Shown one piece after another: positions 5,508-61,753 of a stretch of 64,000 bases of DNA. Both the position numbers and the translations under genes were made by a program. The stretch comes from Myxococcota bacterium. GTDB taxonomy: Bacteria; Myxococcota_A; UBA9160; SMWR01. The number at the start of each line of letters is the position of its first letter. Position 1 is the first letter of the stretch. The notes under the pieces were generated by a model. That model had not been told where the DNA came from and ran no database searches. It saw only the letters and a list, made by a program, of their open reading frames with translations. Where the stretch lies: positions 34,336 through 98,335 of the forward strand of contig JAKVBI010000014.1 of assembly GCA_022447545.1 (NCBI GenBank). Direction: 5' to 3'.

Positions 5508-6842
5508 TCACGATGAAAAGAGTCGGGCGCCCCGTTTGCGAACCTTGCATCCAGCCAGCAGATCGTCCATTGCCAACAATTCTTCCCCCCGCTCGAAGGG
5601 TTCCACCAGGCCAGTCACGGCGGACCGACCTGTGGGAGTCGCCAGACTTCTTCCGAGGGCGCCGTTCAGGCGCTGGAGCATCCAGATCTGGTAGGGGACG
5701 ACCATGCGTCGCGATCGGATGCCCCCGATTTCGAACGGGTGGGTCAGGGGGCCTTCACCGGTTTGTTGCTCTTCGAATCCCGGTGTGGCGGTAAAGGTCT
5801 TCCCGGGAAGTTCTCCGTCTGGGCGATGGGCGTCGCTTGCGATGTAGGCTCCCAGCACGGCCGAGGCATCGGACAGTACTGGCCACATTTCTTGAAAGAA
5901 CACTTGGAGCAGCGGCATGAGGGTCTCGGGGATGGCGTCGTCGGGAAGCCATTCGCCTCCGTCGGTGTTGGCGACGCGACCTACCAGGTTTCCGTTCTCG
6001 TTCAGGGAGTAGAGGCGTTGTCCATAGCGTCTCGCGTTCAGGGCGTTTTCGCCGTTGGTGCGTTCGACCCACTCGCTGACCAGTGGGAAATGCGTACGAA
6101 GAGCGAAGCCCGAGACAGCATCGCGGTAGAGGTGGGCATAGAGCGGGGCGAGTAGTCCGAAATCACCGAGACTGGGTCTTCCGCCCAGGATGTAATCGTG
6201 GATCGAGAAGTGCGCCTCGAGAACTTCGAGGATTCGATGCTGGCTCGCTTGCCAGGCTTGTTCGGTTCGCTCATTGACTCCCAGATGAACCAGGCCCGCG
6301 TAGACACCCTTGGGGCGAGTGCGCGAGTGGGAGATCCCAAAGGCTGCTTCGAAGAAGGCGGCCCCGGCGGCGCGGCGCTGCTCGCCAGATGCATCCGGTG
6401 CGATGACGGAACCCCACTGCTGCTCGTTGTATCTGAGATGGCTGAATGCGTGGCCCTCTTCGCTGAAGTACCAGCGTTCCCAGAAGCCGGGCACGACCAT
6501 CCATTCGTCTGCGAGTAACTCGATCAGGTAGGAGGCGAGACATTGGCGGGGAAGCGTCTCTGGGTCCGGGATGACTGGTGTGCGGGGATGGGCGGCTTCG
6601 CAGTAATCGATGATTTCGCTGGAGTCCTGAATCCAAGTGCCGTCGGGAGCTTCGAGTTGCGGTACTGCGCCGCTACCTGATCGGGGAGTCAGTAAACCTT
6701 CGATCAACTCGGGTGTGGCGAGAATGTCTTCGTAGCCTTCACCGAGATCTCCACAATGGTGCTTGTAGCGCAGGTAGGCTCGTGCTTTGCCGGAGAAGTA
6801 GCTGTGTTCCCAGGAGAAGAGTCGATACACACCGCGCAGCAT
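5508..6842 (-). CDS. glutathione S-transferase-like protein (long, 444 aa)
   Basis: Thioredoxin-like GST N-domain (YRLFSWEHSYFSGKARAYLRYK...VPQLEAPDGTWIQDSSEIIDY) followed by a long helical C-domain. Confidence 0.7.
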   Translation of the reverse strand: MLRGVYRLFSWEHSYFSGKARAYLRYKHHCGDLGEGYEDILATPELIEGLLTPRSGSGAVPQLEAPDGTWIQDSSEIIDYCEAAHPRTPVIPDPETLPRQCLASYLIELLADEWMVVPGFWERWYFSEEGHAFSHLRYNEQQWGSVIAPDASGEQRRAAGAAFFEAAFGISHSRTRPKGVYAGLVHLGVNERTEQAWQASQHRILEVLEAHFSIHDYILGGRPSLGDFGLLAPLYAHLYRDAVSGFALRTHFPLVSEWVERTNGENALNARRYGQRLYSLNENGNLVGRVANTDGGEWLPDDAIPETLMPLLQVFFQEMWPVLSDASAVLGAYIASDAHRPDGELPGKTFTATPGFEEQQTGEGPLTHPFEIGGIRSRRMVVPYQIWMLQRLNGALGRSLATPTGRSAVTGLVEPFERGEELLAMDDLLAGCKVRKRGARLFSS

Positions 6843-9663: not shown

Positions 9664-10126
9664 GCGGATTTCCTTTTCTCGAGGGGCCGTTGAAGGCTGC
9701 GAGTGGAGCGAGGTTCTAGCCTTCGAGGGGGCAGGGCGCTAGTCGCGAGTCGTGGCAGTCGCCAGAAGGTCCCACGCCAAGTCCACGCCGCTGGCGCGCA
9801 GGAGGAGACCAAGTTGGAGCACCTGTGGGGTCCCCCCACCAGCGGGGTGCTCGGGGGGCATTGTCCCACCCCGTGAGTTCGTAGCCTTCGCCACCGTATG
9901 CAACCGCACTTCACAAGGTCGCAATCCACCAGCAGAAATCACGGAGGGGTCGGGCTTCGGCGGACCGCAGGCGCGCTCGCAAATCCCCGCCCTGCAAACG
10001 ATTTCCTCAAGTCCACCGCCGATCACCCGATATGCGGCTCTCGAGGGCGCACCCCCGAATCTCGCGCGAGACGGGGCTGCCCCGTGGGCGGGAGTCCGCC
10101 TGGAGTCGAGGAAAGGAAAGTTGGGG

Positions 10127-10969
10127 ATGCGAGGGTCCGCAAGAGAACGGGAGAAGTGGTGGGTCCAGGCGTTGTCTTCGTTTGGCGTCAAGGCGTTGTC
10201 CATTGCCGTGGGCCTCTTGTGTGCCGAGGTGGGGCCTTCGCTTGCCAGTCCGCTTTGGCTGAGCGACGAAGCCGTTCACGTTGGGATTGACCCCACCTCC
10301 GACGATGGGATCTTTCAGTGGCAACTGGGTGAGTCGAGTGTCGATACACGCATCTGGTGGTGGTTGGAAGTGGATGGGCGGACTGCTCGATCGCTGGATC
10401 AATTCGATCTCGAAGTCGATCGCGATGAGGAATGGGTGGAGATCGAAAGAGAGGCCCGCCGAGGTTTGGAGTTCGAAAACAACCTGATGCTGGTCAGCGG
10501 GGACGAGGCGGGATCCGAGGCGATCCTCCTGCAGGTTCTCGAGGTCGAAAATGAGTGGCGGCGAAGAGATCTCTCGGTGCGGGTACTTCTATTGGCCGAT
10601 TTGAGGCTCGGTCCCGAGATTCCTGTCGAGGTGGGAGCCATCGAGGATCCTGTCAGCCGCGTCCTCACGACCGGCGGGGGGTTGACGCTCGATACGCGTT
10701 TTACTCTGGTGCCGAACCGTCTGAGCATCGGGGAGCCCGAAAGGTTGATCGCTGATTTTCTTTCGCCCATTGCAGGCGAGAACTCGAACCGGTTTCCGGT
10801 GTTGCATCAGGCTTGGGCCGCCGAATGGTGGTTTGAACTGGGACCCGGTGATGAAGCGGAGTTTTCGGTGGGGATGAGTCTGGCCCCGGAGCCCTCCTCG
10901 TCTTTACTCTTGGCCGTTGGGTTGGCGGTGCTGGCCAATCGTTCCAGGAGGTACCGATCGGTCGTCTGA
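10127..10969 (+). CDS. PEP-CTERM sorting-domain protein (hypothetical cargo)
   Basis: C-terminus is APEPSSSLLLAVGLAVLANRSRRYRSVV (PEP motif + TM + basic cluster). N-terminal signal-like region after ATG 10127. The upstream part of ORF 9752.. looks non-coding. Confidence 0.7.
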   Translation: MRGSAREREKWWVQALSSFGVKALSIAVGLLCAEVGPSLASPLWLSDEAVHVGIDPTSDDGIFQWQLGESSVDTRIWWWLEVDGRTARSLDQFDLEVDRDEEWVEIEREARRGLEFENNLMLVSGDEAGSEAILLQVLEVENEWRRRDLSVRVLLLADLRLGPEIPVEVGAIEDPVSRVLTTGGGLTLDTRFTLVPNRLSIGEPERLIADFLSPIAGENSNRFPVLHQAWAAEWWFELGPGDEAEFSVGMSLAPEPSSSLLLAVGLAVLANRSRRYRSVV

Positions 10970-14595: not shown

Positions 14596-16716
14596 TCATG
14601 GATGGCCTCGTGCAAGCCTTCTCAGGTGGGCCCGCAATGCCTCGTGATCGACGCGAAAGGCGTGGCTGCGCCCGGACGTTCCAGACGCCACTGGCTCGAA
14701 GATTCCGGGACGCGCTCTCATGAACCCCAGTTCGAGCGTGCGGTTGGGTCCGAGCGATACCACGTATTCGAGATCCATCTCCGACAGCCGGGTTAGCCAG
14801 CTGTTCTCATCGGCAACTCGGGTCAGTTCCCCCATGCGTCGATAGTCGACGATGGACCCATCGCGAGTCAGGGGGACGTAGGTGAGTTGGTTCTGGAGTT
14901 GGGACCCCAACAGCGGATAGCGGTACCAATTGTGGCCGACCCGATCCCAACTGGCAGTGACCGCGAGGCGCGATCCATTCTCCGGGTCGTCCAAATGAGA
15001 CCAAATTGGCCAGGCGTCCGCATAGAGGATGGGAACAGCGTCCCAACTGCGTTTTGCCGCTGCCGCTGCATAGATGGGGTAGCGGTAGGCATCACGGACC
15101 TCGCGAATGAAGGAGGCGGACCCCAGGAGAACGAGCGTCGCCGCCGACATTGCCCAGATGGGCCATTTTCGGAGAAACCAGCTCACGATTGCAGCCAAGC
15201 CGAGGAAGGGCGCGAGTCGGACCAGCAAGCCAGTGACCGCCTCGAGATCCACCTGGCTCCAGCCCATGGGAATCGAGAGGAGGATCTCGCCCGCGATCAC
15301 CACGGGCCACGCGATCCGTGTCCAACGGCCCCGTGTTGTCGATCCCATCACTACGAGGATGCCGAAGGCGGGCAGAACGTAGCGACCTGCCGAGTCGTGC
15401 CAGCCGTGCTGGAACATTGGGATTGCATGGACGGACGCGAAACTGATGACAACGACGAGAATGCCAAAAGCAGTGACCGCTCGGGTTTCTGTTTGGCGCA
15501 GAAGCGTTCCTGCCCCGGCCAAGGCGAGAGTCATCACAATCAGCGTCGTTGGCCCGAAGCCGCGCGTGTCCCGCAGTTGTGTGATGAGTGCTGAATAGAA
15601 GGGAAAGATCGAACCCTCTTGGCCCTCGAACCGTCGATAGTGGAGCCACATGAATTCTTCGTGGCCCGAGAATATCTCCACCCCTCCGAGGGCAAACTCG
15701 ATCGGGAAGATCGGGGAACCAGTTTCGATCCAGGCCCGGAGATAGGGTCGCAGCATGACGGCGCTGACTGCCAAAAGAGCCAGGATCTCCGGAAGCTTCC
15801 AACTCGGGCCCCGGCGAGCACGGTAGAAGAGCAAGATCCCACCGAGTATCGCGATGGGGAGACCCTGGAGTTTGACTGTGGCACAGAGTCCCAATGCCGC
15901 GGCCGCCAGGATGGCCTCGTGGGCGTTCTGTGCCCTCCCGCTCCGCTGGAGGAAATAGAGAGCCAGCAGAACGGTGGTCAGCAGCGGGATGTCGGCGTAG
16001 GCGGACATGAGGTGTTGAGTGACACCGGGCACGAAAGCCACGGTCAGCGCGGCGAATCCCGCATGCTCGATACTTGCGCCCAGGCCCCGCGCGGCGCCAA
16101 AGCCTGCCACGAGGCAGCCAATCCAGATGCCTAGGCCCGTAAACGCCAAGAAGGCGTCGCCACCAGCGGGAAGCATCCCCCACGCATAGAGGATGTCACT
16201 TCCCGGCAGGTAGTACTCGTAGTAGCCCCAGGCATCCGGGGCGGCCTCGGGTGCGAGCCCTTGGTTCTGAACCCAGCGGCCAGCTTTCAACAGATGGTAT
16301 GTGAGTGCATCCCAGGTGAGCGGAGGGGCTGCCAAGCCGCGCAAGGTGCGCGCGAGAATGACCAGGCTCCCGGCGATACCGAGTCCCAGGAGCACAGGTG
16401 ATTTGAGTGCAGTCGAGATTCTCGCAAGATCCCTGCGGGCAGTTGGAATGGCTTGGATTCGGCGCCCCACGATGATCTGGAGAATCGACGCCAGCAGCAG
16501 TGAAGTTCCAACGGCCACTTCCAGCCTGAACGCCTGCAGGGAGGCGAGCCCCCAGAAGAGCGCGATCTTCAGCCAGTACGCGGCGACGACGGTCGCACAC
16601 CCACGGGCGGTGGTGGAAGATGTCCTTACGACGGCGCTACCCAACAGAAATGCGCTCCACAGCAACGCTCCCCAGAGCACTGCTGCAGCCGCCGCCGCCG
16701 AAACCGGTGTGGTCAC
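14596..16716 (-). CDS. polytopic membrane protein, putative GT-C-fold (ArnT/PMT-like) glycosyltransferase
   Basis: 706 aa with at least 12 predicted TM helices and a C-terminal soluble domain of about 170 aa. GTG start follows GAGG. The functional call is weak and based on architecture only. Confidence 0.65.
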   Translation of the reverse strand: MTTPVSAAAAAAVLWGALLWSAFLLGSAVVRTSSTTARGCATVVAAYWLKIALFWGLASLQAFRLEVAVGTSLLLASILQIIVGRRIQAIPTARRDLARISTALKSPVLLGLGIAGSLVILARTLRGLAAPPLTWDALTYHLLKAGRWVQNQGLAPEAAPDAWGYYEYYLPGSDILYAWGMLPAGGDAFLAFTGLGIWIGCLVAGFGAARGLGASIEHAGFAALTVAFVPGVTQHLMSAYADIPLLTTVLLALYFLQRSGRAQNAHEAILAAAALGLCATVKLQGLPIAILGGILLFYRARRGPSWKLPEILALLAVSAVMLRPYLRAWIETGSPIFPIEFALGGVEIFSGHEEFMWLHYRRFEGQEGSIFPFYSALITQLRDTRGFGPTTLIVMTLALAGAGTLLRQTETRAVTAFGILVVVISFASVHAIPMFQHGWHDSAGRYVLPAFGILVVMGSTTRGRWTRIAWPVVIAGEILLSIPMGWSQVDLEAVTGLLVRLAPFLGLAAIVSWFLRKWPIWAMSAATLVLLGSASFIREVRDAYRYPIYAAAAAKRSWDAVPILYADAWPIWSHLDDPENGSRLAVTASWDRVGHNWYRYPLLGSQLQNQLTYVPLTRDGSIVDYRRMGELTRVADENSWLTRLSEMDLEYVVSLGPNRTLELGFMRARPGIFEPVASGTSGRSHAFRVDHEALRAHLRRLARGHP

Positions 16717-30865: not shown

Positions 30866-31435
30866 ATCGAGGTCACGGGCTCAGTTCCGGTGTACCGGTC
30901 GTGTGCCCCCTCCCTTCGGTGATGCCTCGGCGGGGTATTTCCTGGTTTGGGTGGTCTGATCATGAAATCTCCCGTTCTTGGTGCGCGAAGTCTAGCGGCG
31001 CAACCGGTCGGTACGAGTGAAGGTTTTGGCTTCCACGAGGGATCGGCACATGGCGGTCCAACGCAGTGAAGCCGGGATGCGCCGCGCTTTCCAGCCAGGT
31101 GTGAACTACTTCACAGTCTTTTTTGAGGCTCTGGGACTGTTGTATCGGGCGCGTCAAAACTTGCTTTCGCTTTCGGCAGGCGCAGGAAAGGATCGGTGCG
31201 CCGGGAGGGGCCCGGCGATCATGCACTGAGCGTCCAAGTCTTTGAATCTGCTGGGGAAGGTCGCCCAAGGATCTCTTCCAAGGTGCAAATCGACCGAATT
31301 TCGCGTCGGTGATCGAATGAAAAACCGCCTCCGTCTGATCCAGTTGGAGGCTCCTCGTCGACTGATCCGGGCAGAACCCCAAAACCACCCATCCCTCGGC
31401 CCAACCCGATGGACGAAACATTGGAGAGCGAAGCC

Positions 31436-34400
31436 ATGACCGTCAACAGCCACCCTCGACCGTGCGTCCAGAGTCTTGGGAATCGTTTCGACCTCTCCAA
31501 CGCCGTCAGGAGTTTCGTTGCGGGCCTCCTGGCGCTTGGCGTGCTCGGCCTCACCGCTTGCGGAGACCCGCCCGTCCGCCCGTCCTCGGCCGAAGAGTCC
31601 TCGGCCGCTTCGCGACCGACCCCCGAGTCGAGCCCTCAGCCTCGCGACCCGGGCGACCCTGCGGCCTGTGCGCCTTACACCATTTTTGAGGGTCCGGTCG
31701 ATCTGCTCGAGCGGGTCACACTCGTGGGGCTGACCTCCGCAGAAGAGATCGATGGCATTCGAATCGAAGGTCCGGAGTCCGATCTTCCGGTCTTTCTGGG
31801 GCAGGCCGAGGACTCGGGCTTTTTCTTCACCGCCCCCATCCATCCGGACCTGGCGGGGGAGGCGGGTAGCTTGAGGGTGTGGCTCGATCTGGCTTCCATG
31901 ACGGAGGAGAGCTGCGACCTCGGCACCATTGAAGTGCCGGCGCTGCCCCCGAGCGATTCCAGCGAGGCCGACGAGGTGCTGGACCTGTTGGAGCAGGCGG
32001 CTCTGTCCATGCTGCAGAGCTACGAGTTCGACGCCGAGTCCTTCGAGCCTCTGGCCTCCGGCAACAGCGCCATGGATCTGTCCCTTGCGCGACTTCATCG
32101 GGCACTGTTCTACGAGGAGTCGCCCACGCGGATTTCTGTCATTCGGTCGGAACTCGCGGCCCTGCCCGATTCCGAGCGCTCGTTCCTCGGTTCGATCCTG
32201 AAAGAGACACGGTTTCGCGAGACGCTGGAGGACATGATCGCCCTCTACGAACCGCAGAGGACACCTGCCGTGCCGGTCATGGGGGCGTCTGTGGCGGCCA
32301 TGTCTCCGTCCAATCCTCTCTTACCGCAACCGCCGGCGTCGGAGGACTCGGGCTCTTGTTATCCGGCGAACGTTGCACCGGAAGTGATTGGATCTGCTGG
32401 AGACTTGAGCCAGGCCATGGTCCGTGCGAAAGAGGCAGAGGACGTCACCGAGCGCTGGAAATCGTCGCGTAGGTTTTCGAGCAACTGGCTCAACTATCTG
32501 GGGGTCTTTTCCACGAGTCTTCATGGAAAAGCCCTCTCTCTCATGGGGGGTGGGTTGATCCTCTATATGGATCTCTCCGAGCGATACACGGCCACGCTCT
32601 TGCCTTCGAAGCTCGAAGAGGTGCGGATGCAGGCGAGCGTCAATCCCATCAATGAGGATTACATGGACAAGATTTCGAGCTTACCGGTCTGGGACGCCTA
32701 TGCGACGGCGTCGAGTCAGGGCGCCGACCTCAAGAAGGATCTCTTCCAGATCGTGCTGGCGATTGCAGGCGCGGTTCCATCGTCGAAGACCGTTGGGCTC
32801 GGACTCATCCAATATGGAGATGCTACGAACCATGCCTTCCAATCGATCCCCGACGACGCGAAGTGCTTCTCGATACCGGGCCACACCTGGAGCAACATCC
32901 GGGTGACTGGACGGGAGTGGCTGGAAGAGGATCCCAAGCTTTCTGGTGAGATCATAAGCATCGCTTTGCAGGATCCCAACAGGATCGTTCCCGTCGATAT
33001 CGGTACCACGAACATCGAGATCATGCTTTCGCGTGAGAAGTTCCCTTGTGCGGACTGCTCCGTTGGCAACCGGAGCGATGACATCGACATCACGGTTCGG
33101 GAGAAGGAAGTGGTTTTCAGCCGCTCGGCATTTCCGATTCCCAGCCCTTCCGGCACCGTGACGGTCACTGGAGCGATCCAGAACTCGAGCCGCCCCGATT
33201 TCTGGAGCCTCGACTACGACGATTCGGGGGTGAATCTGATCGGAGTGGAACGGCAGGGGGCCAGCTTCGCGCTCACTTTCCAGGGGAAGGGCGATCCCGA
33301 CGCGTTTCCTGTTGGCGTCCGAGTGAAGAGTGAATCGACCAAGCTTCCGGGCCAGAGCGAGAACCCGTGGTTCGAGACGAAGATCGTCCTCGAGCGAGAA
33401 GTGAAGATCGAGCACGATGGCGACGACTGCGTGGGAACCGACGAGGAGGTGATCCTCTCCGCCACTGTGATCGGACTCAATATGCCAGATGTTTCGTGGG
33501 AGGCCTCCGTGGGAGCGGATCTGATCCCAGTGAGCTCAACCGAAGCCGTTTTTTCCGCGATGGATCCCGGCATCTACACGATCACGGCCATCGCCGCGGA
33601 AGACGGAGGGACCCGGGGGTCCATCGAGATCGCGGTCCAAGCATGCGACTTCGAACTCTACGTCAACAGCAGGGCCCGGGTGTCGACGGTGAAGAGTGAC
33701 TCGCATCCCAACTGCAATCCCGGGAGCCATGAGGAGCCCTTCATCGAAGAGGAACAACACGGTCTGCCTTGGGGGGAGAGTTGGGTGGATACGGAAACCT
33801 TCAGAAACCCAGATCGATGGACCGAGGGTGGAAGCTTCTCCGTCGACCTGTTCGCGAGCGAGAGCATTACCTCGACCTACGAAATCATGGGGCAATGCTT
33901 CAGTTCGGTTGCACTGGCCGAGGGGCAGATTGCAGGTGAGCTCTCGAGTCGAGACGACGGACGGGTCGTCGATATCGATCTCGAGATGGGTGGTCGACAC
34001 AATTGCGTTCCGGTGCACGGAGATGTCGAAGATTGCAAGGGTGGGAGCGCGGATCTCAGCTCCAGCATGTACTTCGTCCTTGAGCACGAGGGCTGGGGGA
34101 CCCAGAGTTACGATTACGAGGTGGATCTGGACTGTACGGCGGATACGGGTGGGGTGCCGGTCCAGGTGATTACCTCCGTGGTGATCATGAACGCCGCGGG
34201 AAATTGGCAGAACGGCGTGGCCCAGCACGTTCTGGACAACTCGACCCTGGGAGCCTTCTCGCGGGTCTCGTTCCTGCGTTGCTCGGAAGGCCAGCCGATT
34301 TCTGTGCAGGAAACTTTTGATTTCCAGGACTATCTGCCGCCCGGTGCTTCATCCAATTCAGAGATCGAGCCGTACACGGCTGCGGTCTGGGTGTCCTTCA

Positions 34401-34504
34401 GTGCGAATGCCTCGATGGATCCCGGAAACATGAGAAGGTTCGAGACGATCCATCAGAGTTCGGTACAGGGAAGCGTCTCCCTTCGGCCCGTGATGACTCG
34501 CTGA
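31436..34504 (+). CDS. large (about 1020 aa) lipoprotein of unknown function with at least one Ig-like (Big_2-like) segment
   Basis: ATG 31436 follows GGAGAG. Lipobox LGLTAC, then a Pro/Ser-rich linker. DVSWEASVGADLIPVSSTEAVFSAMDPGIYTITAIAAEDGGTRGSIEIAV resembles bacterial Ig-like domains. Confidence 0.7.
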   Translation: MTVNSHPRPCVQSLGNRFDLSNAVRSFVAGLLALGVLGLTACGDPPVRPSSAEESSAASRPTPESSPQPRDPGDPAACAPYTIFEGPVDLLERVTLVGLTSAEEIDGIRIEGPESDLPVFLGQAEDSGFFFTAPIHPDLAGEAGSLRVWLDLASMTEESCDLGTIEVPALPPSDSSEADEVLDLLEQAALSMLQSYEFDAESFEPLASGNSAMDLSLARLHRALFYEESPTRISVIRSELAALPDSERSFLGSILKETRFRETLEDMIALYEPQRTPAVPVMGASVAAMSPSNPLLPQPPASEDSGSCYPANVAPEVIGSAGDLSQAMVRAKEAEDVTERWKSSRRFSSNWLNYLGVFSTSLHGKALSLMGGGLILYMDLSERYTATLLPSKLEEVRMQASVNPINEDYMDKISSLPVWDAYATASSQGADLKKDLFQIVLAIAGAVPSSKTVGLGLIQYGDATNHAFQSIPDDAKCFSIPGHTWSNIRVTGREWLEEDPKLSGEIISIALQDPNRIVPVDIGTTNIEIMLSREKFPCADCSVGNRSDDIDITVREKEVVFSRSAFPIPSPSGTVTVTGAIQNSSRPDFWSLDYDDSGVNLIGVERQGASFALTFQGKGDPDAFPVGVRVKSESTKLPGQSENPWFETKIVLEREVKIEHDGDDCVGTDEEVILSATVIGLNMPDVSWEASVGADLIPVSSTEAVFSAMDPGIYTITAIAAEDGGTRGSIEIAVQACDFELYVNSRARVSTVKSDSHPNCNPGSHEEPFIEEEQHGLPWGESWVDTETFRNPDRWTEGGSFSVDLFASESITSTYEIMGQCFSSVALAEGQIAGELSSRDDGRVVDIDLEMGGRHNCVPVHGDVEDCKGGSADLSSSMYFVLEHEGWGTQSYDYEVDLDCTADTGGVPVQVITSVVIMNAAGNWQNGVAQHVLDNSTLGAFSRVSFLRCSEGQPISVQETFDFQDYLPPGASSNSEIEPYTAAVWVSFSANASMDPGNMRRFETIHQSSVQGSVSLRPVMTR

Positions 34505-47582: not shown

Positions 47583-48383
47583 TCAAGTTCCGGGGTCACG
47601 GCAGGCCTGAGTGATCCCCGTTTTCGTGTCGAAGGTGTCGAGATCGTTGGATCGAATCATCGACTGCAGGGTCTTCACGTAGGTGTTTCCTCGTGCCGAA
47701 TAGTTCTCCAGGCCATTGGCCATGGCGAGACCTGAGGGGGCTTTGCCTTGGCTCCGCTCTACCGATCGAATTTTTCGCAAGGACCGGTAAGACGGATTCG
47801 TATTGAGATTTTCAACGAAAGCCGCCACGGACTGCTGGGCTCCCTCAAATCGCCGAACTTCGTACTCGCCCCCACTCGGTCTCTTGTGCGGCACCATCCC
47901 GCAATTCTTCCGATAGCACCACTGCCCGAAGTAGTTGTTTCCCTCCCTGGAGAAACGCGAAGTGCCCCAGGCGGATTCGTTGGCCGCCTGTGCCAGAGCC
48001 AACGATGCTGGCACCACGTCGACGCGTAAGAGAAGGTCTTCAAAGAGCGAGGCATCCACAGCTTCGGTTCGCAATCCGTAGGCTGTCGACAACTTTTCGA
48101 TGAACTTCAACTCCGATGGATCGAGGGGGTGCGCCTCCGCTGCTTTTTTTCTGATTTTTTGGAGCTGCTTTCTCTGCTGAATTAGTTGTGCGTTTTTGTC
48201 TGCAATCATCGGAGCGAGATAACAGAAGAATCTGAGCTTTCGCTCGTCTGTGTCCGCGATGGAGGCGAAGTCAGGGGCTTGCTCGACTTCCTGCATCGCG
48301 CAGTGGAGGGAAAACACGAGTGCCAGGGCGATGCTCTCCGTGCGGTGGATGCGCATTCGCCGCGCTTGTTTACTTTCAGTCAT
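47583..48383 (-). CDS. Bax-like glucosaminidase-domain protein
   Basis: ALAQAANESAWGTSRFSREGNNYFGQWCY matches the mannosyl-glycoprotein endo-beta-N-acetylglucosaminidase-like domain. ATG 48383 follows AGAGGA (alternative ATG at 48419). Confidence 0.75.
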   Translation of the reverse strand: MTESKQARRMRIHRTESIALALVFSLHCAMQEVEQAPDFASIADTDERKLRFFCYLAPMIADKNAQLIQQRKQLQKIRKKAAEAHPLDPSELKFIEKLSTAYGLRTEAVDASLFEDLLLRVDVVPASLALAQAANESAWGTSRFSREGNNYFGQWCYRKNCGMVPHKRPSGGEYEVRRFEGAQQSVAAFVENLNTNPSYRSLRKIRSVERSQGKAPSGLAMANGLENYSARGNTYVKTLQSMIRSNDLDTFDTKTGITQACRDPGT

Positions 48384-48427
48384 CGGTATCCTCTGAGGCA
48401 GGTGACGGCGAGTAGTCATTTGGTTTC

Positions 48428-49573
48428 TCAGATGGGTTCGGGTTCACCTCGAGGAATATTCTGGAACTCGCGATGGATTTTCGTCACGCCTCTCCACAAC
48501 AGCACGGCCCAAGCGGTAAGGGCCAGAGCCACCCACCCCTTGGGAAGCAGGGCGAAGGCTCCGATCCAGATTCCTGCGAAAGCAAGGATGCGCGGGATCA
48601 TTCTGGCGGGGTGGGCGGGCGGCTTCTCATTGGCACGGCCGAGAGGGAAGGGTCTTGGTCTTAGGAACCAGCCGTGGGCCATGAGCATCAAGACGAAGAG
48701 GGACCAGGGAGGGGCCTGCTGGTCGAGTTCCGGGGCATCATCGAGTTCCGGTTCCTCGCAGTCTCTTTCGAGACGCGCCTGGATGTTTCGCCAAACGTGA
48801 CCTGGAGTGGGTCGCGATATGGCACCTCCCACGTTCTGACGAGTCGGGCGGCAGCGCCAGCGGTAGAGAACACGTCCTTCGGGGGTTAGCGCGAGGACGG
48901 CGGGTTGTAAGTATCCCTTGGGGTGTGAGGCCCATGAACGGAACTTCAGAAGTCCTTGGGACCGGCTTACGAACAGACTCAGCCAGCCGCGTTCTCGGCA
49001 GGTATCGATGATTTCGTGATGAGGGTCCCCGATACAGGAAAAACCGTGGCCCCACGCTTCCTCGGCCTCCGTTGCGAGGCTCTGGGGTTCGCTCGTGATT
49101 GCGTAGATTTCGCCACCGTCTCTTCGGATCTGGTCGACGACGCCTGATTTGCCATAGCCTCGCAACTCGAGGCGACAGGGAGGTCACCAGAATCCGCGAT
49201 AGAAGACGAGCACCGTGAATGCGTGCTTCTGTAATTGGTCGTCGAGCCAACCCTTTCTCACACCGGAGGGTGGGTCGAGTTCCGGAGGGATGCCGCCTTC
49301 CCCAAGTTTGGCCGAAGTGATACGGAATTCCTCACCCGTGATTTGAACGAGTACCTGCTCCCGGAGACAGATGTCCCCATCGCACAGCACCAATCCGAGT
49401 TCCATTTCTTGATCGGGATACGCATCCAAAGCCAGGTCGGCATTCACCAGTCCGGTCACCTCGAACTGTGCACCGCGCTTTTCGTTCACCCAAGCCAGGG
49501 CCGCTTCGGCAGCAGGCTTCAACTCGGGCGGAATCTCCGTGATGGCTTCCGGCACGTGGACCCCCGGGAACAA
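48428..49573 (-). CDS. PRX-like2 (AhpC/TSA-type) thioredoxin-fold protein with in-frame TGA in a UxxC motif, fused to a C-terminal membrane domain (candidate selenoprotein)
   Basis: ORFs 49184..49573 and 48428..49165 are in the same frame, joined by TGA 49186-49184: ...HAFTVLVFYRGFW-TGA-PPCRLELRGYGKSGV...ITSEPQS...GDPHHEII...LQPAVLALTPEGRVLY. The beta1 strand lies before the TGA and the rest of the fold after it. The C-terminus has 3 TM-like segments. Confidence 0.65.
49157..49173 (-). promoter_or_regulatory. SECIS-like hairpin 10 nt downstream of the in-frame UGA
   Basis: On the minus-strand RNA: GCCUCG-AGUUG-CGAGGC, a 6-bp stem with a 5-nt loop containing GU. The loop G/U sit about 21-22 nt from the U of UGA. 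Confidence 0.45.
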
Positions 49574-56989: not shown

Positions 56990-58150
56990 TCAGAGCAGGG
57001 GTGAAACCCTCTTTCGGACAGCCGGGTCGCGGAAACGGAAGAGACAGCGGTCGCAGTAGTAGTGAAGCAGTTGCTCGGCCAGGAAGACTCCCAACACGAG
57101 CCCGACGATGAGCGCGAACTGCGGAGGGACCTGTCCCAGGATCTCTTTGTAGTCTCCGCCGCTGAATTTATTGAACATGAAAAAGTAGTGGTGAAAGATC
57201 GCGGCGACGACGACGATCAGGCTTAGAGCACGAACGTGTCGGTAAAGCGACCCAGGAGCTCCGAATCCCAGGGTGCGGTAGTAGTTGGTGTTGATGAGTC
57301 CAACGAGGCCGATCGCGATGAGCCAATGGCTCCAGAAATAGGAAATGATGTAGAAGAAGGCGAGTTTGTAGTGTGTAAAGTACAGAATCGCCGGGTGTGC
57401 AAGCATTACGAAGTAGTACAGCAGCTTCGGGATCGAGGTGTCGCCTTTCGCGATCTCGATCCCCATCACCACGAGGGTCAGAGCTACCGCCGCTATCAGC
57501 GCGATCTCGGCGCCTACCGCTACGAAGTCGCGACTCAGTGGCACATAGCTGAAGAAAGCTTCCTGGAACGGAGAGTTGGTGACGGCTTTCAGGTAAACGA
57601 AGGGTTGGATCACGAACATCATCACGACTGCGAACCCCTTGTCGATCAAACGGTCGCGGCGTCCGGTCTGCCCCGCCTTCAAGCGATAGATCGACAGGAC
57701 TCCGAAATCCTGATTGCCGAAGTGCCAGAAATGGCCCACCCAGAACAGACCGAGGTAGACCCCCCAGAGCCACTGTGATGAGGTCAAGGGGAAGGTGTGC
57801 GGGAATGCATCGTATACGCCGATCCCCACGCCTAGAAGAAGCGAGAATCCCACGACGGCCAGTGGGATGTAGGTCCACTTTCGGCGGTCGAGACGTCTTT
57901 CTTCACGGAGTAGAGGCGAAGCGACCACCATATAGGTCGTGGACCAAGAGTGGGAGATTGCAAGGTAGACGTTCACTGCAAATAGCAGAGATGCCGCGGC
58001 CTCCATGCCGATCCCAGCGGTCAACCCGAGGAATAGTGCACAGCCCCAAAGAGCTGAGAACATCCAAAACAGGTCCCAGGGAGCCGAGCGAACCCAGCCC
58101 CTAGGGGAGGTCCGGAATGTAGGAACCGTCGTCGCCGTATCAGTTGCCAT
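56990..58150 (-). CDS. polytopic integral membrane protein of unknown function
   Basis: 386 aa with about 10 hydrophobic segments. Contains conserved-looking WVGHFWHFGNQDFGV. No family recognised. Confidence 0.65.
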   Translation of the reverse strand: MATDTATTVPTFRTSPRGWVRSAPWDLFWMFSALWGCALFLGLTAGIGMEAAASLLFAVNVYLAISHSWSTTYMVVASPLLREERRLDRRKWTYIPLAVVGFSLLLGVGIGVYDAFPHTFPLTSSQWLWGVYLGLFWVGHFWHFGNQDFGVLSIYRLKAGQTGRRDRLIDKGFAVVMMFVIQPFVYLKAVTNSPFQEAFFSYVPLSRDFVAVGAEIALIAAVALTLVVMGIEIAKGDTSIPKLLYYFVMLAHPAILYFTHYKLAFFYIISYFWSHWLIAIGLVGLINTNYYRTLGFGAPGSLYRHVRALSLIVVVAAIFHHYFFMFNKFSGGDYKEILGQVPPQFALIVGLVLGVFLAEQLLHYYCDRCLFRFRDPAVRKRVSPLL

Positions 58151-59912: not shown

Positions 59913-60914
59913 CTACCGAAAAGCGATGGTCAGAACCATCATGAAAAGTGCGGGGTAGACAAAGCGTGCGGCGATGTCGATCTGCCTCGCGAGTTTGAGG
60001 CGTCGGTCCTCTCGGGCCAGGATGCCTGTTACGACGGCCTCTCCGAGTGCGCCAAAGACAAGGAGCATGCACCCCATCAGGTAGAAGTCTGCCCGGGTGA
60101 GGTATGAGATGGGCGGGAGGATGTTGCTTAAGGCAAAGTTGTAGGCGATGAGCGTGAAGACTGCACTGGTTGCGATCCCGATCTGGGTGGCGAGCACTGT
60201 CGGGTCGAGCCAGAAGACGGTGTAGGCCATGAGGACGATGAGTCCCAGCGGGATAAAAAGCTTCCAGGCAAAGAACAATCCGCTGCGCTGAGCCGAATAG
60301 GTTGCGGTGATCGTCGCGTAGGAATGGATGCCATCCGGAGCGAGTTGCTTTCCGTCGCTCAAGCTTTGGGGTGCGACATTCCACCCAGCGACAGTAAAGC
60401 TTCTCATTTTTCCCGAGCGCGATGGATCTGGGATGAGTACTCGATTGCGATGGTCCAGAGTTCCGATTTCGACTTCGAAGGTCTGGATGTCCATTGGAAA
60501 GTCCTTGAGATTCATCGGTATGCTGAGCGTTCCCTGGTAGCGTTGGCGAAAAATGACTCTTCCTTTTCGGTCAACATCCACCAGGGGTTCGAATCTCTCC
60601 TTCAAGTTTCGACCATTGATGACGAAGAGACGCGGTGAATCGACTTGGGCGAGTGGGAGTACCCGGAGTTCTGGAGCACCGGGGTCAGCGAGATCGTTCT
60701 GTTGCCAGCTTGCAATGATGGCGAAGTCCACTACGACCGACTGCTGAAGTTCCTGGATTTCGGAGATGTCCAGGACATAGACTCCGACCTCGACCGGAAG
60801 TGGTTGCGTAGATGTGCCGTTGGCCGCGGTACCCATTGCGATGCCCGCGAACAAAACAAGGAGCCTCTTCCATCGATGTGAAGAGTATTTTTCGTCGGGC
60901 TCCTCGGTTCTCAT
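59913..60914 (-). CDS. prokaryotic pentameric ligand-gated ion channel (pLGIC, GLIC/ELIC-like)
   Basis: After ATG 60914 there is a signal peptide and a beta-rich extracellular domain of about 200 aa with LKDFPMDIQTFEVEIG (FPxD 'Cys-loop' equivalent). Four TM helices follow, with a very short M3-M4 loop. Confidence 0.75.
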   Translation of the reverse strand: MRTEEPDEKYSSHRWKRLLVLFAGIAMGTAANGTSTQPLPVEVGVYVLDISEIQELQQSVVVDFAIIASWQQNDLADPGAPELRVLPLAQVDSPRLFVINGRNLKERFEPLVDVDRKGRVIFRQRYQGTLSIPMNLKDFPMDIQTFEVEIGTLDHRNRVLIPDPSRSGKMRSFTVAGWNVAPQSLSDGKQLAPDGIHSYATITATYSAQRSGLFFAWKLFIPLGLIVLMAYTVFWLDPTVLATQIGIATSAVFTLIAYNFALSNILPPISYLTRADFYLMGCMLLVFGALGEAVVTGILAREDRRLKLARQIDIAARFVYPALFMMVLTIAFR

Positions 60915-61024
60915 GGTTTGCGTGTCGATGGGGCTCGGTTTCAACTGGACGTCTCGATTGCTTTGGCCTGGTCCGTTCCAGCACTCGGTGCGTCCCAGTT
61001 GCTGTGCACAAGCCGCGATGGCGT

Positions 61025-61753
61025 CTATTTTCGTGCGACGGCCAGCAAGTTCTGTGTGAATACCGCTCGCCGACCCGTATCTCCAGATTCCGCAGCCAGG
61101 TAGACCCTGAGGATGCCTCGAATCAATTTCCAGATGATCCAGCGTCCCAGGCTCTTGAGTGTTTGGGGTGTTGGTGCCCATTCGTAGCACTCCACCCCTT
61201 TAAAGCCCGATGCGAGAAGAAGAGCCGGAAGAGAGTCACGCGTGAATGCGATTTCGTGTGTGAGGTCTCCGTAACGCACTCTGCCAAACAAAGGCGATTC
61301 GCCATTGGGGACCTTGATCAGCCAACGGCCACCGGGTCGGAGGACTCGGAATACCTCGTCTACGAGAGCAATGAGTTCGTCGCGAGTCTGGTGCTCCAAG
61401 ACATCGATGGCCAGAATCAGATCCTGAGAGGAGTCCGTGAGTCCAGCGAGGGTGTCCATCAGGCCTCCCTGTGAGACTCCTTCGACACCGAGGCGCGCGG
61501 CTTCATCGACCTGCTCCTGCGAGAGGTCGACACCGCGGAGGTTGCGATACCCCTCGCGCTGAGCGTAGTAGAGGACTCCTCCATACCCACAACCCAGGTC
61601 GATGCCCACGGCGTCGCGGTCGTCGGGGAAGTGTTTCTCGATCATCGCACGGGTGGGTCCAGCGCGTGCGCGCAGGCCGGCTTCGCCCACGGTTCCAGCC
61701 TGGCCATCCGTGATGTACGACTCGTAGATTCGCGATCGGTAGTCGGACGACAT
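61025..61753 (-). CDS. class I SAM-dependent methyltransferase
   Basis: ATG 61753. AVGIDLGCGYGGVLYY (motif I) and LRPGGRWLIKVPN. Confidence 0.8.
   Translation of the reverse strand: MSSDYRSRIYESYITDGQAGTVGEAGLRARAGPTRAMIEKHFPDDRDAVGIDLGCGYGGVLYYAQREGYRNLRGVDLSQEQVDEAARLGVEGVSQGGLMDTLAGLTDSSQDLILAIDVLEHQTRDELIALVDEVFRVLRPGGRWLIKVPNGESPLFGRVRYGDLTHEIAFTRDSLPALLLASGFKGVECYEWAPTPQTLKSLGRWIIWKLIRGILRVYLAAESGDTGRRAVFTQNLLAVARK

Follow-up and report, generated by a model that had tools for sequence, protein, structure and literature searches.

A gene on the minus strand of a contig from a Myxococcota bacterium very probably encodes a selenoprotein that has been overlooked by annotation. The stretch analysed comprises 64,000 nucleotides (nt) of GenBank assembly GCA_022447545.1 (contig JAKVBI010000014.1, positions 34,336 to 98,335) and is termed the window below. 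In it, two adjacent open reading frames (ORFs), 49573..49184 and 49165..48428, share one frame and are divided solely by TGA 49186-49184, which would encode selenocysteine (Sec, U). The data establish the conservation of this TGA, its pairing with Cys in homologues, covariation in the selenocysteine insertion sequence (SECIS) hairpin, the fold, the domain layout and the linkage to sel genes in Opitutales. Taken together, it is highly probable that we are dealing with one selenoprotein gene whose UGA is decoded with the help of a SECIS element and whose product is a three-part, membrane-tethered UxxC oxidoreductase. The gene is mis-annotated as a truncated hypothetical protein; its reading as a selenoprotein gene is well supported. 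The gene is real, and its family is not new: the selenoprotein nature of the family was already published with the GOS dataset of 2008 (PMC2398784).

One reading frame with an internal TGA

The minus-strand frame opens after stop codon 49618-49616 and closes at TGA 48430-48428; TGA 49186-49184 is its sole interruption. Read-through across this codon yields ...AFTVLVFYRGFW-U-PPCRLELRGYGK..., in a longer excerpt ...QKHAFTVLVFYRGFW-U-PPCRLELRGYGK.... A first-pass annotation made from the sequence alone had described exactly this single frame and proposed that its TGA is read as Sec, and all coordinates given there are correct. Since homologues begin with M-P-x-V-x-E-x-I-P, GTG 49555, which gives MPEAITEIPPEL... 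and thus a similar N-terminus, is likely to be the start codon rather than TTG 49573, which would add six residues. With the GTG start, the product has 375 amino acids (aa) and Sec at residue 124. GenBank annotates only the 245 aa behind the TGA (48428-49165, start TTG 49165) as 'hypothetical protein MK489_14445 [Myxococcota bacterium]'.

Screening of GTDB with a single genome for each species yielded 156 loci that encode relatives, the best 80 of which were fetched for codon counts. In all of these 80 best loci, as well as in a second tandem copy in one of them, the codon at the Sec site is TGA, and tblastn matches cover both halves in one frame (residues ~13-380). Going by their names, the hosts belong to at least seven bacterial lineages: Alphaproteobacteria, Gammaproteobacteria/Pseudomonadales (including relatives of Haliea and HTCC2089), Myxococcota and 'Deltaproteobacteria', Acidimicrobiia (the sponge-associated Ca. 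Poriferisodalis), Opitutales, Thermoanaerobaculia and Chloroflexota. Compared with the window sequence, the differences at the three codon positions amount to 0.38/0.29/0.63 upstream and 0.36/0.32/0.63 downstream of the TGA. They fall mostly on third positions, and the aa identity is 50% on either side. Judged by these substitution patterns, both flanks are under equal coding constraint, i.e. under purifying selection. Two duplications were seen: A Pseudomonadales chromosome (L005) carries two tandem copies of the gene at 6385 and 7578, each with TGA and hairpin, and one Ca. Poriferisodalis chromosome (NZ_OZ240249.1; L022, L033) has two distant copies.

A protein search with the read-through sequence, in which U was written as C, returned two classes of matches. 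The first comprises hundreds of proteins of ~240-250 aa that cover only the part behind the TGA, among them MK489_14445 itself. The second consists of a dozen or so longer proteins (387-401 aa) with PF00578, whose matches extend over 93-98% of the query. Thirteen full-length homologues have a Cys exactly at the TGA position (FYRGFW-C-PPCR), encoded by TGT or TGC. They share all three protein parts with the window protein at 41-50% identity, so that Cys homologues with the predicted three-part layout do exist. The Cys at the U site as well as C58 and C63 are invariant in the alignment of the full-length homologues. In two further entries (P0020, P0053), the TGA region is bridged by unrelated residues (e.g. 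...FYRGRWCPPAAPS...); these look like frameshifted assemblies or gene calls and not like true Cys forms. TGA forms seem to prevail in the family, given that the codon is TGA at each of the 80 best genome loci. Most of its database entries are split into pieces of ~120-135 aa and ~240-250 aa.

The hairpin behind the TGA and the Sec genes

A hairpin of 17 nt (49173-49157) begins 10 nt past the UGA, and the distance between UGA and loop is 16 nt. In isolation it folds at -9.2 kcal/mol. Among 82 TGA-containing copies, a stem of the type GC-NN-CG / CG-NN-GC and a loop AGUUR are found at constant distance from the UGA. In the 78 distinct sequences, 99.6% of the stem cells are paired, and the two middle pairs vary between UA and CG (38/37) and between UA, GC, CG and AU (39/24/7/1), respectively, with 72 double-sided, i.e. 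compensatory, changes. None of 500 shuffles reached the observed score, and sliding of the 3' arm reduced pairing to 27-50%. All six stem pairs are formed in 80 of the 82 Sec forms (mean dG -10.5). By contrast, an intact stem was found in none of five Cys-form genes, which retain four to five of six pairs at a local dG of -0.4 to -7.3. The Cys form nearest to the Sec forms (P0003, L081:6388-6420) retains five of six pairs and the ELRGY sequence; it looks like a recent switch from Sec to Cys with a decaying SECIS.

Bacterial SECIS (bSECIS) elements are characterized by a loop of 3-9 nt with a G at position 1 or 2, as a rule followed by G or U, a stem of 4-16 bp, a UGA-to-loop distance of 16-37 nt and a minimum free energy of at most -7.5 kcal/mol (PMC13188914). 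With a loop of 5 nt that has G at position 2 and then U, a 6-bp stem, 16 nt and -9.2 kcal/mol, the hairpin lies within each of these limits. Covariation, lack of an intact stem in the five Cys forms and agreement with the bSECIS consensus support the assignment of the hairpin as a SECIS element, in line with the first-pass annotation. Rfam had no family match over the hairpin region, and no general bacterial SECIS model was among its matches.

The hairpin lies within coding sequence, and its stem has left a trace in the protein. Within the motif C-R-x-E-L-R-(G/S), codon x contributes its bases 1 and 2 to the stem, where they pair with base 1 of the Gly or Ser codon and with the silent wobble position of the Arg codon. 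Residue x is L, R or H in combination with Gly and F or S in combination with Ser (alignment A2, columns 25-26/36-37), and the Arg wobble base tracks the second base of codon x. These residues covary because the SECIS stem must stay paired. The family is therefore a clean example of an RNA signal that constrains a protein sequence.

In Opitutales, the orthologous gene is found beside the genes for Sec insertion. In four of four loci (L013, L014, L015 and L034), ARAGORN detected a tRNA-SeC with the anticodon TCA at a distance of 5-6 kb downstream of the orthologue. The genes in between were identified in L013 as selB (TIGR00475, 314 bits), selA (TIGR00474, 497 bits) and selD (NF002098, 520 bits), all above the curated cutoffs, and the same three genes are present in the other loci. 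Since tRNA-SeC, selB, selA and selD adjoin the orthologue in four loci, the selenoprotein gene of Opitutales directly adjoins a complete gene set for Sec insertion. In all four genomes, this set (7784-12326 in L013) follows immediately after the selenoprotein gene and is located on the opposite strand.

SelB-mediated insertion of Sec at UGA is the established bacterial Sec pathway. Because of the SECIS covariation and the linkage to sel genes, the same route is proposed here: The hairpin 10 nt past UGA 49186-49184 would act as SECIS and recruit SelB-GTP-Sec-tRNA(Sec), so that UGA would be read as Sec, while the terminal TGA 48430-48428, which is not followed by such a hairpin, would terminate translation. 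The same mRNA thus contains one TGA with a hairpin for Sec and one without for the stop.

Several observations weigh against this proposal. The window lacks tRNA genes and, consequently, a tRNA(Sec). No selA, selB or selD was found in a Pfam survey of 36 large ORFs, and tblastn with the SelA, SelB and SelD proteins from Opitutales gave no match in the window either. Sec machinery accompanies the gene in four Opitutales loci, and none was found in the 64 kb around the Myxococcota gene. The Sec competence of this metagenome-assembled genome (MAG) and the insertion of selenium in its host are, like membrane topology, substrate and electron donor, what we infer. Furthermore, the 6-bp stem is short, the UGA-to-loop distance of 16 nt is at the lower limit, and the 81-nt context has only a moderate folding advantage over shuffled sequences (z = -2.45). 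Finally, ORF clusters from 81 loci comprise no neighbour conserved across lineages that would point to a pathway; real neighbour clusters extend over at most 25 loci.

Three other explanations for the TGA have to be weighed. If it were a genuine stop, two polypeptides would result, an N-terminal one of ~123 aa and one of 245 aa from TTG 49165 (MK489_14445). This would agree with gene callers and the source record, which annotate the downstream ORF only, with the many database entries of ~240-250 aa or ~120-135 aa and with the fact that the same gene normally ends in TGA. Yet, such a stop would cut a thioredoxin fold between β1 and α1 and would fall exactly on the CxxC Cys of full-length homologues. 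Moreover, the two halves are adjacent and in frame in all 80 loci, orthologues are never separate genes, the TGA is followed by a covarying SECIS hairpin, of which the Cys forms checked have no intact version, and sel genes adjoin the gene in Opitutales. Two independent polypeptides are thus very improbable. The same TGA could also be read through without Sec, either by near-cognate decoding as Trp, Cys or Gly or by reassignment. Sec insertion in the Myxococcota host being presumed, this deserves mention. However, TGA terminates the window gene and many homologues, the lineages belong to phyla with the standard code, a redox Cys is the counterpart of the TGA in homologues, the hairpin conforms to the bSECIS model of SelB-dependent decoding, and in Opitutales the sel genes are adjacent; the chance of a read-through of this kind is slimmer still.

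The window is derived from a MAG, which raises the question of whether a TGC or TGT codon was mutated or mis-called as TGA, leaving a pseudogene or an assembly error. An identical TGA in 80 independent assemblies from several phyla, purifying selection on both halves and a SECIS stem maintained by compensatory changes leave next to no room for this. Equal coding constraint and TGA in 80 of 80 loci mean that neither a pseudogene or assembly error nor two independent genes can explain the data.

Architecture and predicted function of the protein

The central domain matches the AhpC-TSA model (PF00578) by a small margin (30.4 bits, cutoff 26; residues 116-190, U written as C). Redoxin (PF08534) remained below its threshold, and at E <= 1, Pfam returned only these two families for the read-through protein. 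Among the Cys homologues, the precomputed PF00578 match is unmarked for some and labelled '(weak)' for others. The first-pass annotation had assigned the label PRX-like2; the Pfam family that matches is AhpC-TSA, and AhpC-TSA_2 had no match at E <= 1. CDD entry cd02970 (PRX_like2), which presumably describes a CXXC motif of the FYRGxWCPxC type, is a lead only. No curated NCBIfam model covers the family. The sole match, to the SelL-related model NF040769 (residues 114-188), is local and far below threshold (15.8 bits vs 120). SelL-related redox proteins likewise use peroxiredoxin (Prx)-like folds as selenoproteins in aquatic organisms, but the window protein is not a member of this group.

An AlphaFold2 (AF2) model of the Cys homologue P0003, calculated from an alignment of 47 rows (pLDDT 86, pTM 0.77), comprises an N-terminal helix with four strands (residues 10-85), a poorly ordered linker, a thioredoxin fold (105-273), a conserved helix of modest length (297-307) and, at the C-terminal end, a pair of long helices (325-349 and 352-377; pLDDT ~96-98). 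CPPC is located between β1 and α1 of the thioredoxin fold. As had been anticipated from the sequence, the TGA thus splits this fold, with strand β1 encoded upstream and helix α1 downstream. In Foldseek, the central domain of the model resembles PrxQ/BCP, AhpC and ResA (E ~3e-5 to 3e-4, probability 1.00). A profile search against the PDB yielded only weak ResA matches (E 0.13), in which W-C-P-P-C is aligned with W-C-E-P-C of ResA.

The N-terminal domain, for which the first-pass annotation recognised no family, is indeed conserved in both Sec and Cys forms and has no match in Pfam, NCBIfam or PDB profiles. A separate AF2 model of the 123 N-terminal residues of the window protein (pLDDT 64) displays the same helix and four strands; the best fold neighbour of the domain in Foldseek was not significant (E 0.095). 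An exhaustive HMMER search in 1.84 billion representatives found 68 proteins, nearly all of which have 60-140 aa and correspond to upstream ORFs cut at the UGA. Three long repetitive proteins were set aside as compositional noise. Since only family fragments and noise were obtained, the domain is specific to this family. Its two invariant Cys residues are spaced C58-x4-C63, in more distant Cys forms C-x8-C. This pair is a candidate for a relay or a second redox site.

At the C-terminus, three hydrophobic segments had been predicted. The hydrophobic region as such is conserved; it is composed of one weakly hydrophobic helix (residues 282-303) and a hairpin of two helices (319-337 and 340-354). 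Kyte-Doolittle windows exceed 1.2 only at residues 317-360, and the hairpin is flanked on either side by segments rich in Arg and Lys. Hydropathy revealed neither a signal nor an anchor at the N-terminus of the window protein, which is acidic and hydrophilic. Because of this and the basic flanks at both ends, the most likely role of the hairpin is to hold the protein at the cytoplasmic face of the inner membrane in an N-in/C-in orientation, which would place the catalytic domain in the cytoplasm.

Throughout the family, the canonical Prx motif PxxxT/SxxC is absent. The motif reads F-Y-R-G-F-W-U-P-P-C, and with C127 as the reference point, Sec124 takes the place of Thr and an Arg that of Pro. 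As the catalytic Pro and Thr are replaced, the protein is not a canonical Prx; its centre corresponds to a thioredoxin-type UxxC. In structure, the central domain is matched best by canonical Prx such as PrxQ/BCP and AhpC, and in a motif alignment made by eye, the position of their peroxidatic Cys coincides with the second Cys of the U-P-P-C. In contrast to the window protein, they have PxxxT/SxxC and possess neither the N-terminal domain nor the membrane hairpin; the identity is ~11-19%. ResA/TlpA proteins share the fold and an active site that can be aligned as W-C-x-P-C. However, they reside outside the cytoplasm with a helix at the N-terminus as their anchor, whereas the window protein has a C-terminal hairpin and no N-terminal signal or anchor. 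With an insignificant sequence match (E ~0.13), it does not belong to them.

In the thioredoxin superfamily, the N-terminal residue of the motif is the nucleophile. The enzyme most likely works as a thioredoxin-fold UxxC oxidoreductase, for which the following cycle can be proposed. The selenolate of U124 would attack an oxidised substrate, for example a disulfide, a sulfenate or a peroxide located at or within the membrane. The adduct would be resolved by C127, yielding an intramolecular selenenylsulfide, which would be re-reduced by a thiol donor, possibly via the cysteine pair of the N-terminal domain. The C-terminal hairpin would confine this chemistry to the membrane surface.

The main functional rival accepts the selenoprotein, but regards it as a peroxidase at the membrane surface, acting e.g. 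on lipid hydroperoxides, instead of a thiol-disulfide oxidoreductase. The closest folds are those of PrxQ/BCP and AhpC, the Pfam family is AhpC-TSA, and membrane tethering would place the centre beside lipid peroxides. In addition, the hosts, judged by their names only, look like bacteria from oxic water and sponges, and selenols react fast with peroxides, as is known from the chemistry of glutathione peroxidases and Sec-containing Prx. On the other hand, Pro of PxxxTxxC is replaced by Arg and Thr by Sec itself, the thioredoxin-type UxxC is aligned with the CxxC of ResA, and such proteins are classified in the literature as Prx-like thiol:disulfide oxidoreductases. A peroxidase is a possibility to be reckoned with, if an unlikely one, and the oxidoreductase is preferred. 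More tentatively, the protein might represent a functionally distinct, as yet undelineated selenoenzyme subfamily: a cytoplasm-facing, membrane-tethered selenol/thiol oxidoreductase in which the N-terminal Cys pair relays to U-P-P-C and which acts on membrane oxidants or a partner. The apparent dominance of TGA forms, the spread of the family over at least seven lineages of bacteria from the sea and from sponges and the linkage to sel genes in Opitutales hint in this direction.

Relatives of the protein have been reported from marine metagenomes. Selenoproteins that carry a thioredoxin-like UXXC motif were described from the Sargasso Sea as a 'Prx-like protein family' (PMC1088965), and the GOS paper lists a group 'Prx-like 1' with pfam00578, UxxC and 225 selenoproteins (Table 2 in PMC2398784). 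A review from 2026 has an entry 'Prx-like thiol:disulfide oxidoreductase, PF00578, UxxC/UxxU', predicted with high confidence (PMC13188914). Under '#Prx-like 1' in GOS Dataset S1 (PMC2398784), JCVI_READ_1056998 contains the N-terminal domain and ...LLYYRGLWUPPCRFELRSY..., and JCVI_READ_3057796 contains the C-terminal ...AHGWFLRPKVFPL... together with hydrophobic helices. Between the headers '#Prx-like 1' and '#Prx-like 2', 'WUPPCR' occurs 30 times and 'LYRWR' 15 times. With a pfam00578-type domain, UxxC and published relatives at the sequence level, the window protein can be assigned to 'Prx-like 1'. Like the members of this group, it has an AhpC/TSA-type thioredoxin fold, UxxC with Sec in first position and, as in the GOS and Sargasso Sea data, marine bacterial relatives. 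Nevertheless, 'Prx-like 1' is an umbrella group, and most of its members are short and soluble (e.g. ...FYRGHWUPYCRR..., ~130 aa), unlike the window protein. The three Prx-like papers checked (PMC2398784, PMC1088965, PMC13188914) mention neither the extra N-terminal domain nor the membrane hairpin, nor the subfamily as a unit. SECIS covariation, preponderance of TGA and linkage to the sel operon of Opitutales were not found in the papers or libraries checked, and a literature search on selenoproteins in sponge symbionts yielded nothing relevant.

The finding overturns nothing that is known about selenoproteins; its practical value lies in annotation. In the source record, as in most entries of the databases, the gene is split into a piece of ~125 aa and a 'hypothetical' one of ~245 aa. 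As no NCBIfam model captures the family, model-based annotation pipelines are expected to go on missing it, and with a family model built from the present alignments, entries could be put right by the hundreds. Furthermore, it would be reasonable to choose a Sec redox protein with a membrane tether and a wide distribution among marine and sponge-associated bacteria as a target for biochemistry.

Features of the gene and its surroundings

Table 1. Coordinates of the selenoprotein gene and its parts in the window
Feature	Positions	Strand	Remarks
Complete selenoprotein gene	48428..49555	-	375 codons + TGA stop 48430-48428; GTG start 49555 probable
In-frame TGA, very probably read as Sec (residue 124, with which the redox motif U-P-P-C begins)	49184..49186	-	
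Bacterial SECIS hairpin, 6-bp stem GCCUCG/CGAGGC, 5-nt loop AGUUG	49157..49173	-	inside the codons for R-L-E-L-R-G
N-terminal family-specific domain, residues 1-85	49301..49555	-	helix + four-stranded sheet; invariant Cys58 and Cys63 (codons 49384-49367) at a β-hairpin
Thioredoxin-fold AhpC/TSA (Prx-like) domain, residues ~98-264	48764..49264	-	U124-P-P-C127, located where α1 begins; conserved motifs GDPHHE, SHPKG-x-QP, LYRWR
Conserved weakly hydrophobic helix region, residues 282-303 (...AHGWFLRPxxF)	48647..48712	-	near-invariant A-x-G-W-F-x-x-P-x-x-F
C-terminal hydrophobic helical hairpin, residues 319-337 + 340-354, P-K-G joint	48494..48601	-	predicted membrane anchor

Across the 81 loci, the only broadly common ORF clusters are those of the two halves of the gene itself and of off-frame ORFs that overlap them. 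In the window, the gene is surrounded by a glucosaminidase-domain gene, a GT2 glycosyltransferase gene on the other strand and genes for a methyltransferase, a short-chain dehydrogenase/reductase (SDR) and acyl-CoA dehydrogenases. Only 8 nt separate the stop codon of the selenoprotein gene from the start of the glucosaminidase ORF (47583-48419, minus strand, 278 aa, PF01832), which is on the same strand and may be co-transcribed with the selenoprotein gene; it is not conserved in the other loci.

A scan of the window for in-frame TGA codons gave 195 frame pairs, mostly noise due to high GC content. Two cases were inspected singly, an adjacent pair of acyl-CoA dehydrogenase ORFs and a CxxU-like candidate at 15592. 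The latter was rejected, as it is an off-frame ORF inside a gene for a 706-aa membrane protein on the other strand. Four further long ORFs had no Pfam match at E <= 1e-6: 31409-34504 (plus strand, 1031 aa), 5508-6842 (minus, 444 aa), 9752-10969 (plus, 405 aa) and 56990-58150 (minus, 386 aa). The 425-aa product of ORF 59913-61190 (minus strand) matches Neur_chan_LBD and Neur_chan_memb, which are characteristic of pentameric ligand-gated ion channels, and is a predicted bacterial homologue of Cys-loop receptors. Elsewhere in the window, there are many genes for acyl-CoA dehydrogenases and SDRs as well as for a CoA-transferase, GDSL lipases and an MMPL/RND transporter; their abundance points to lipid metabolism.

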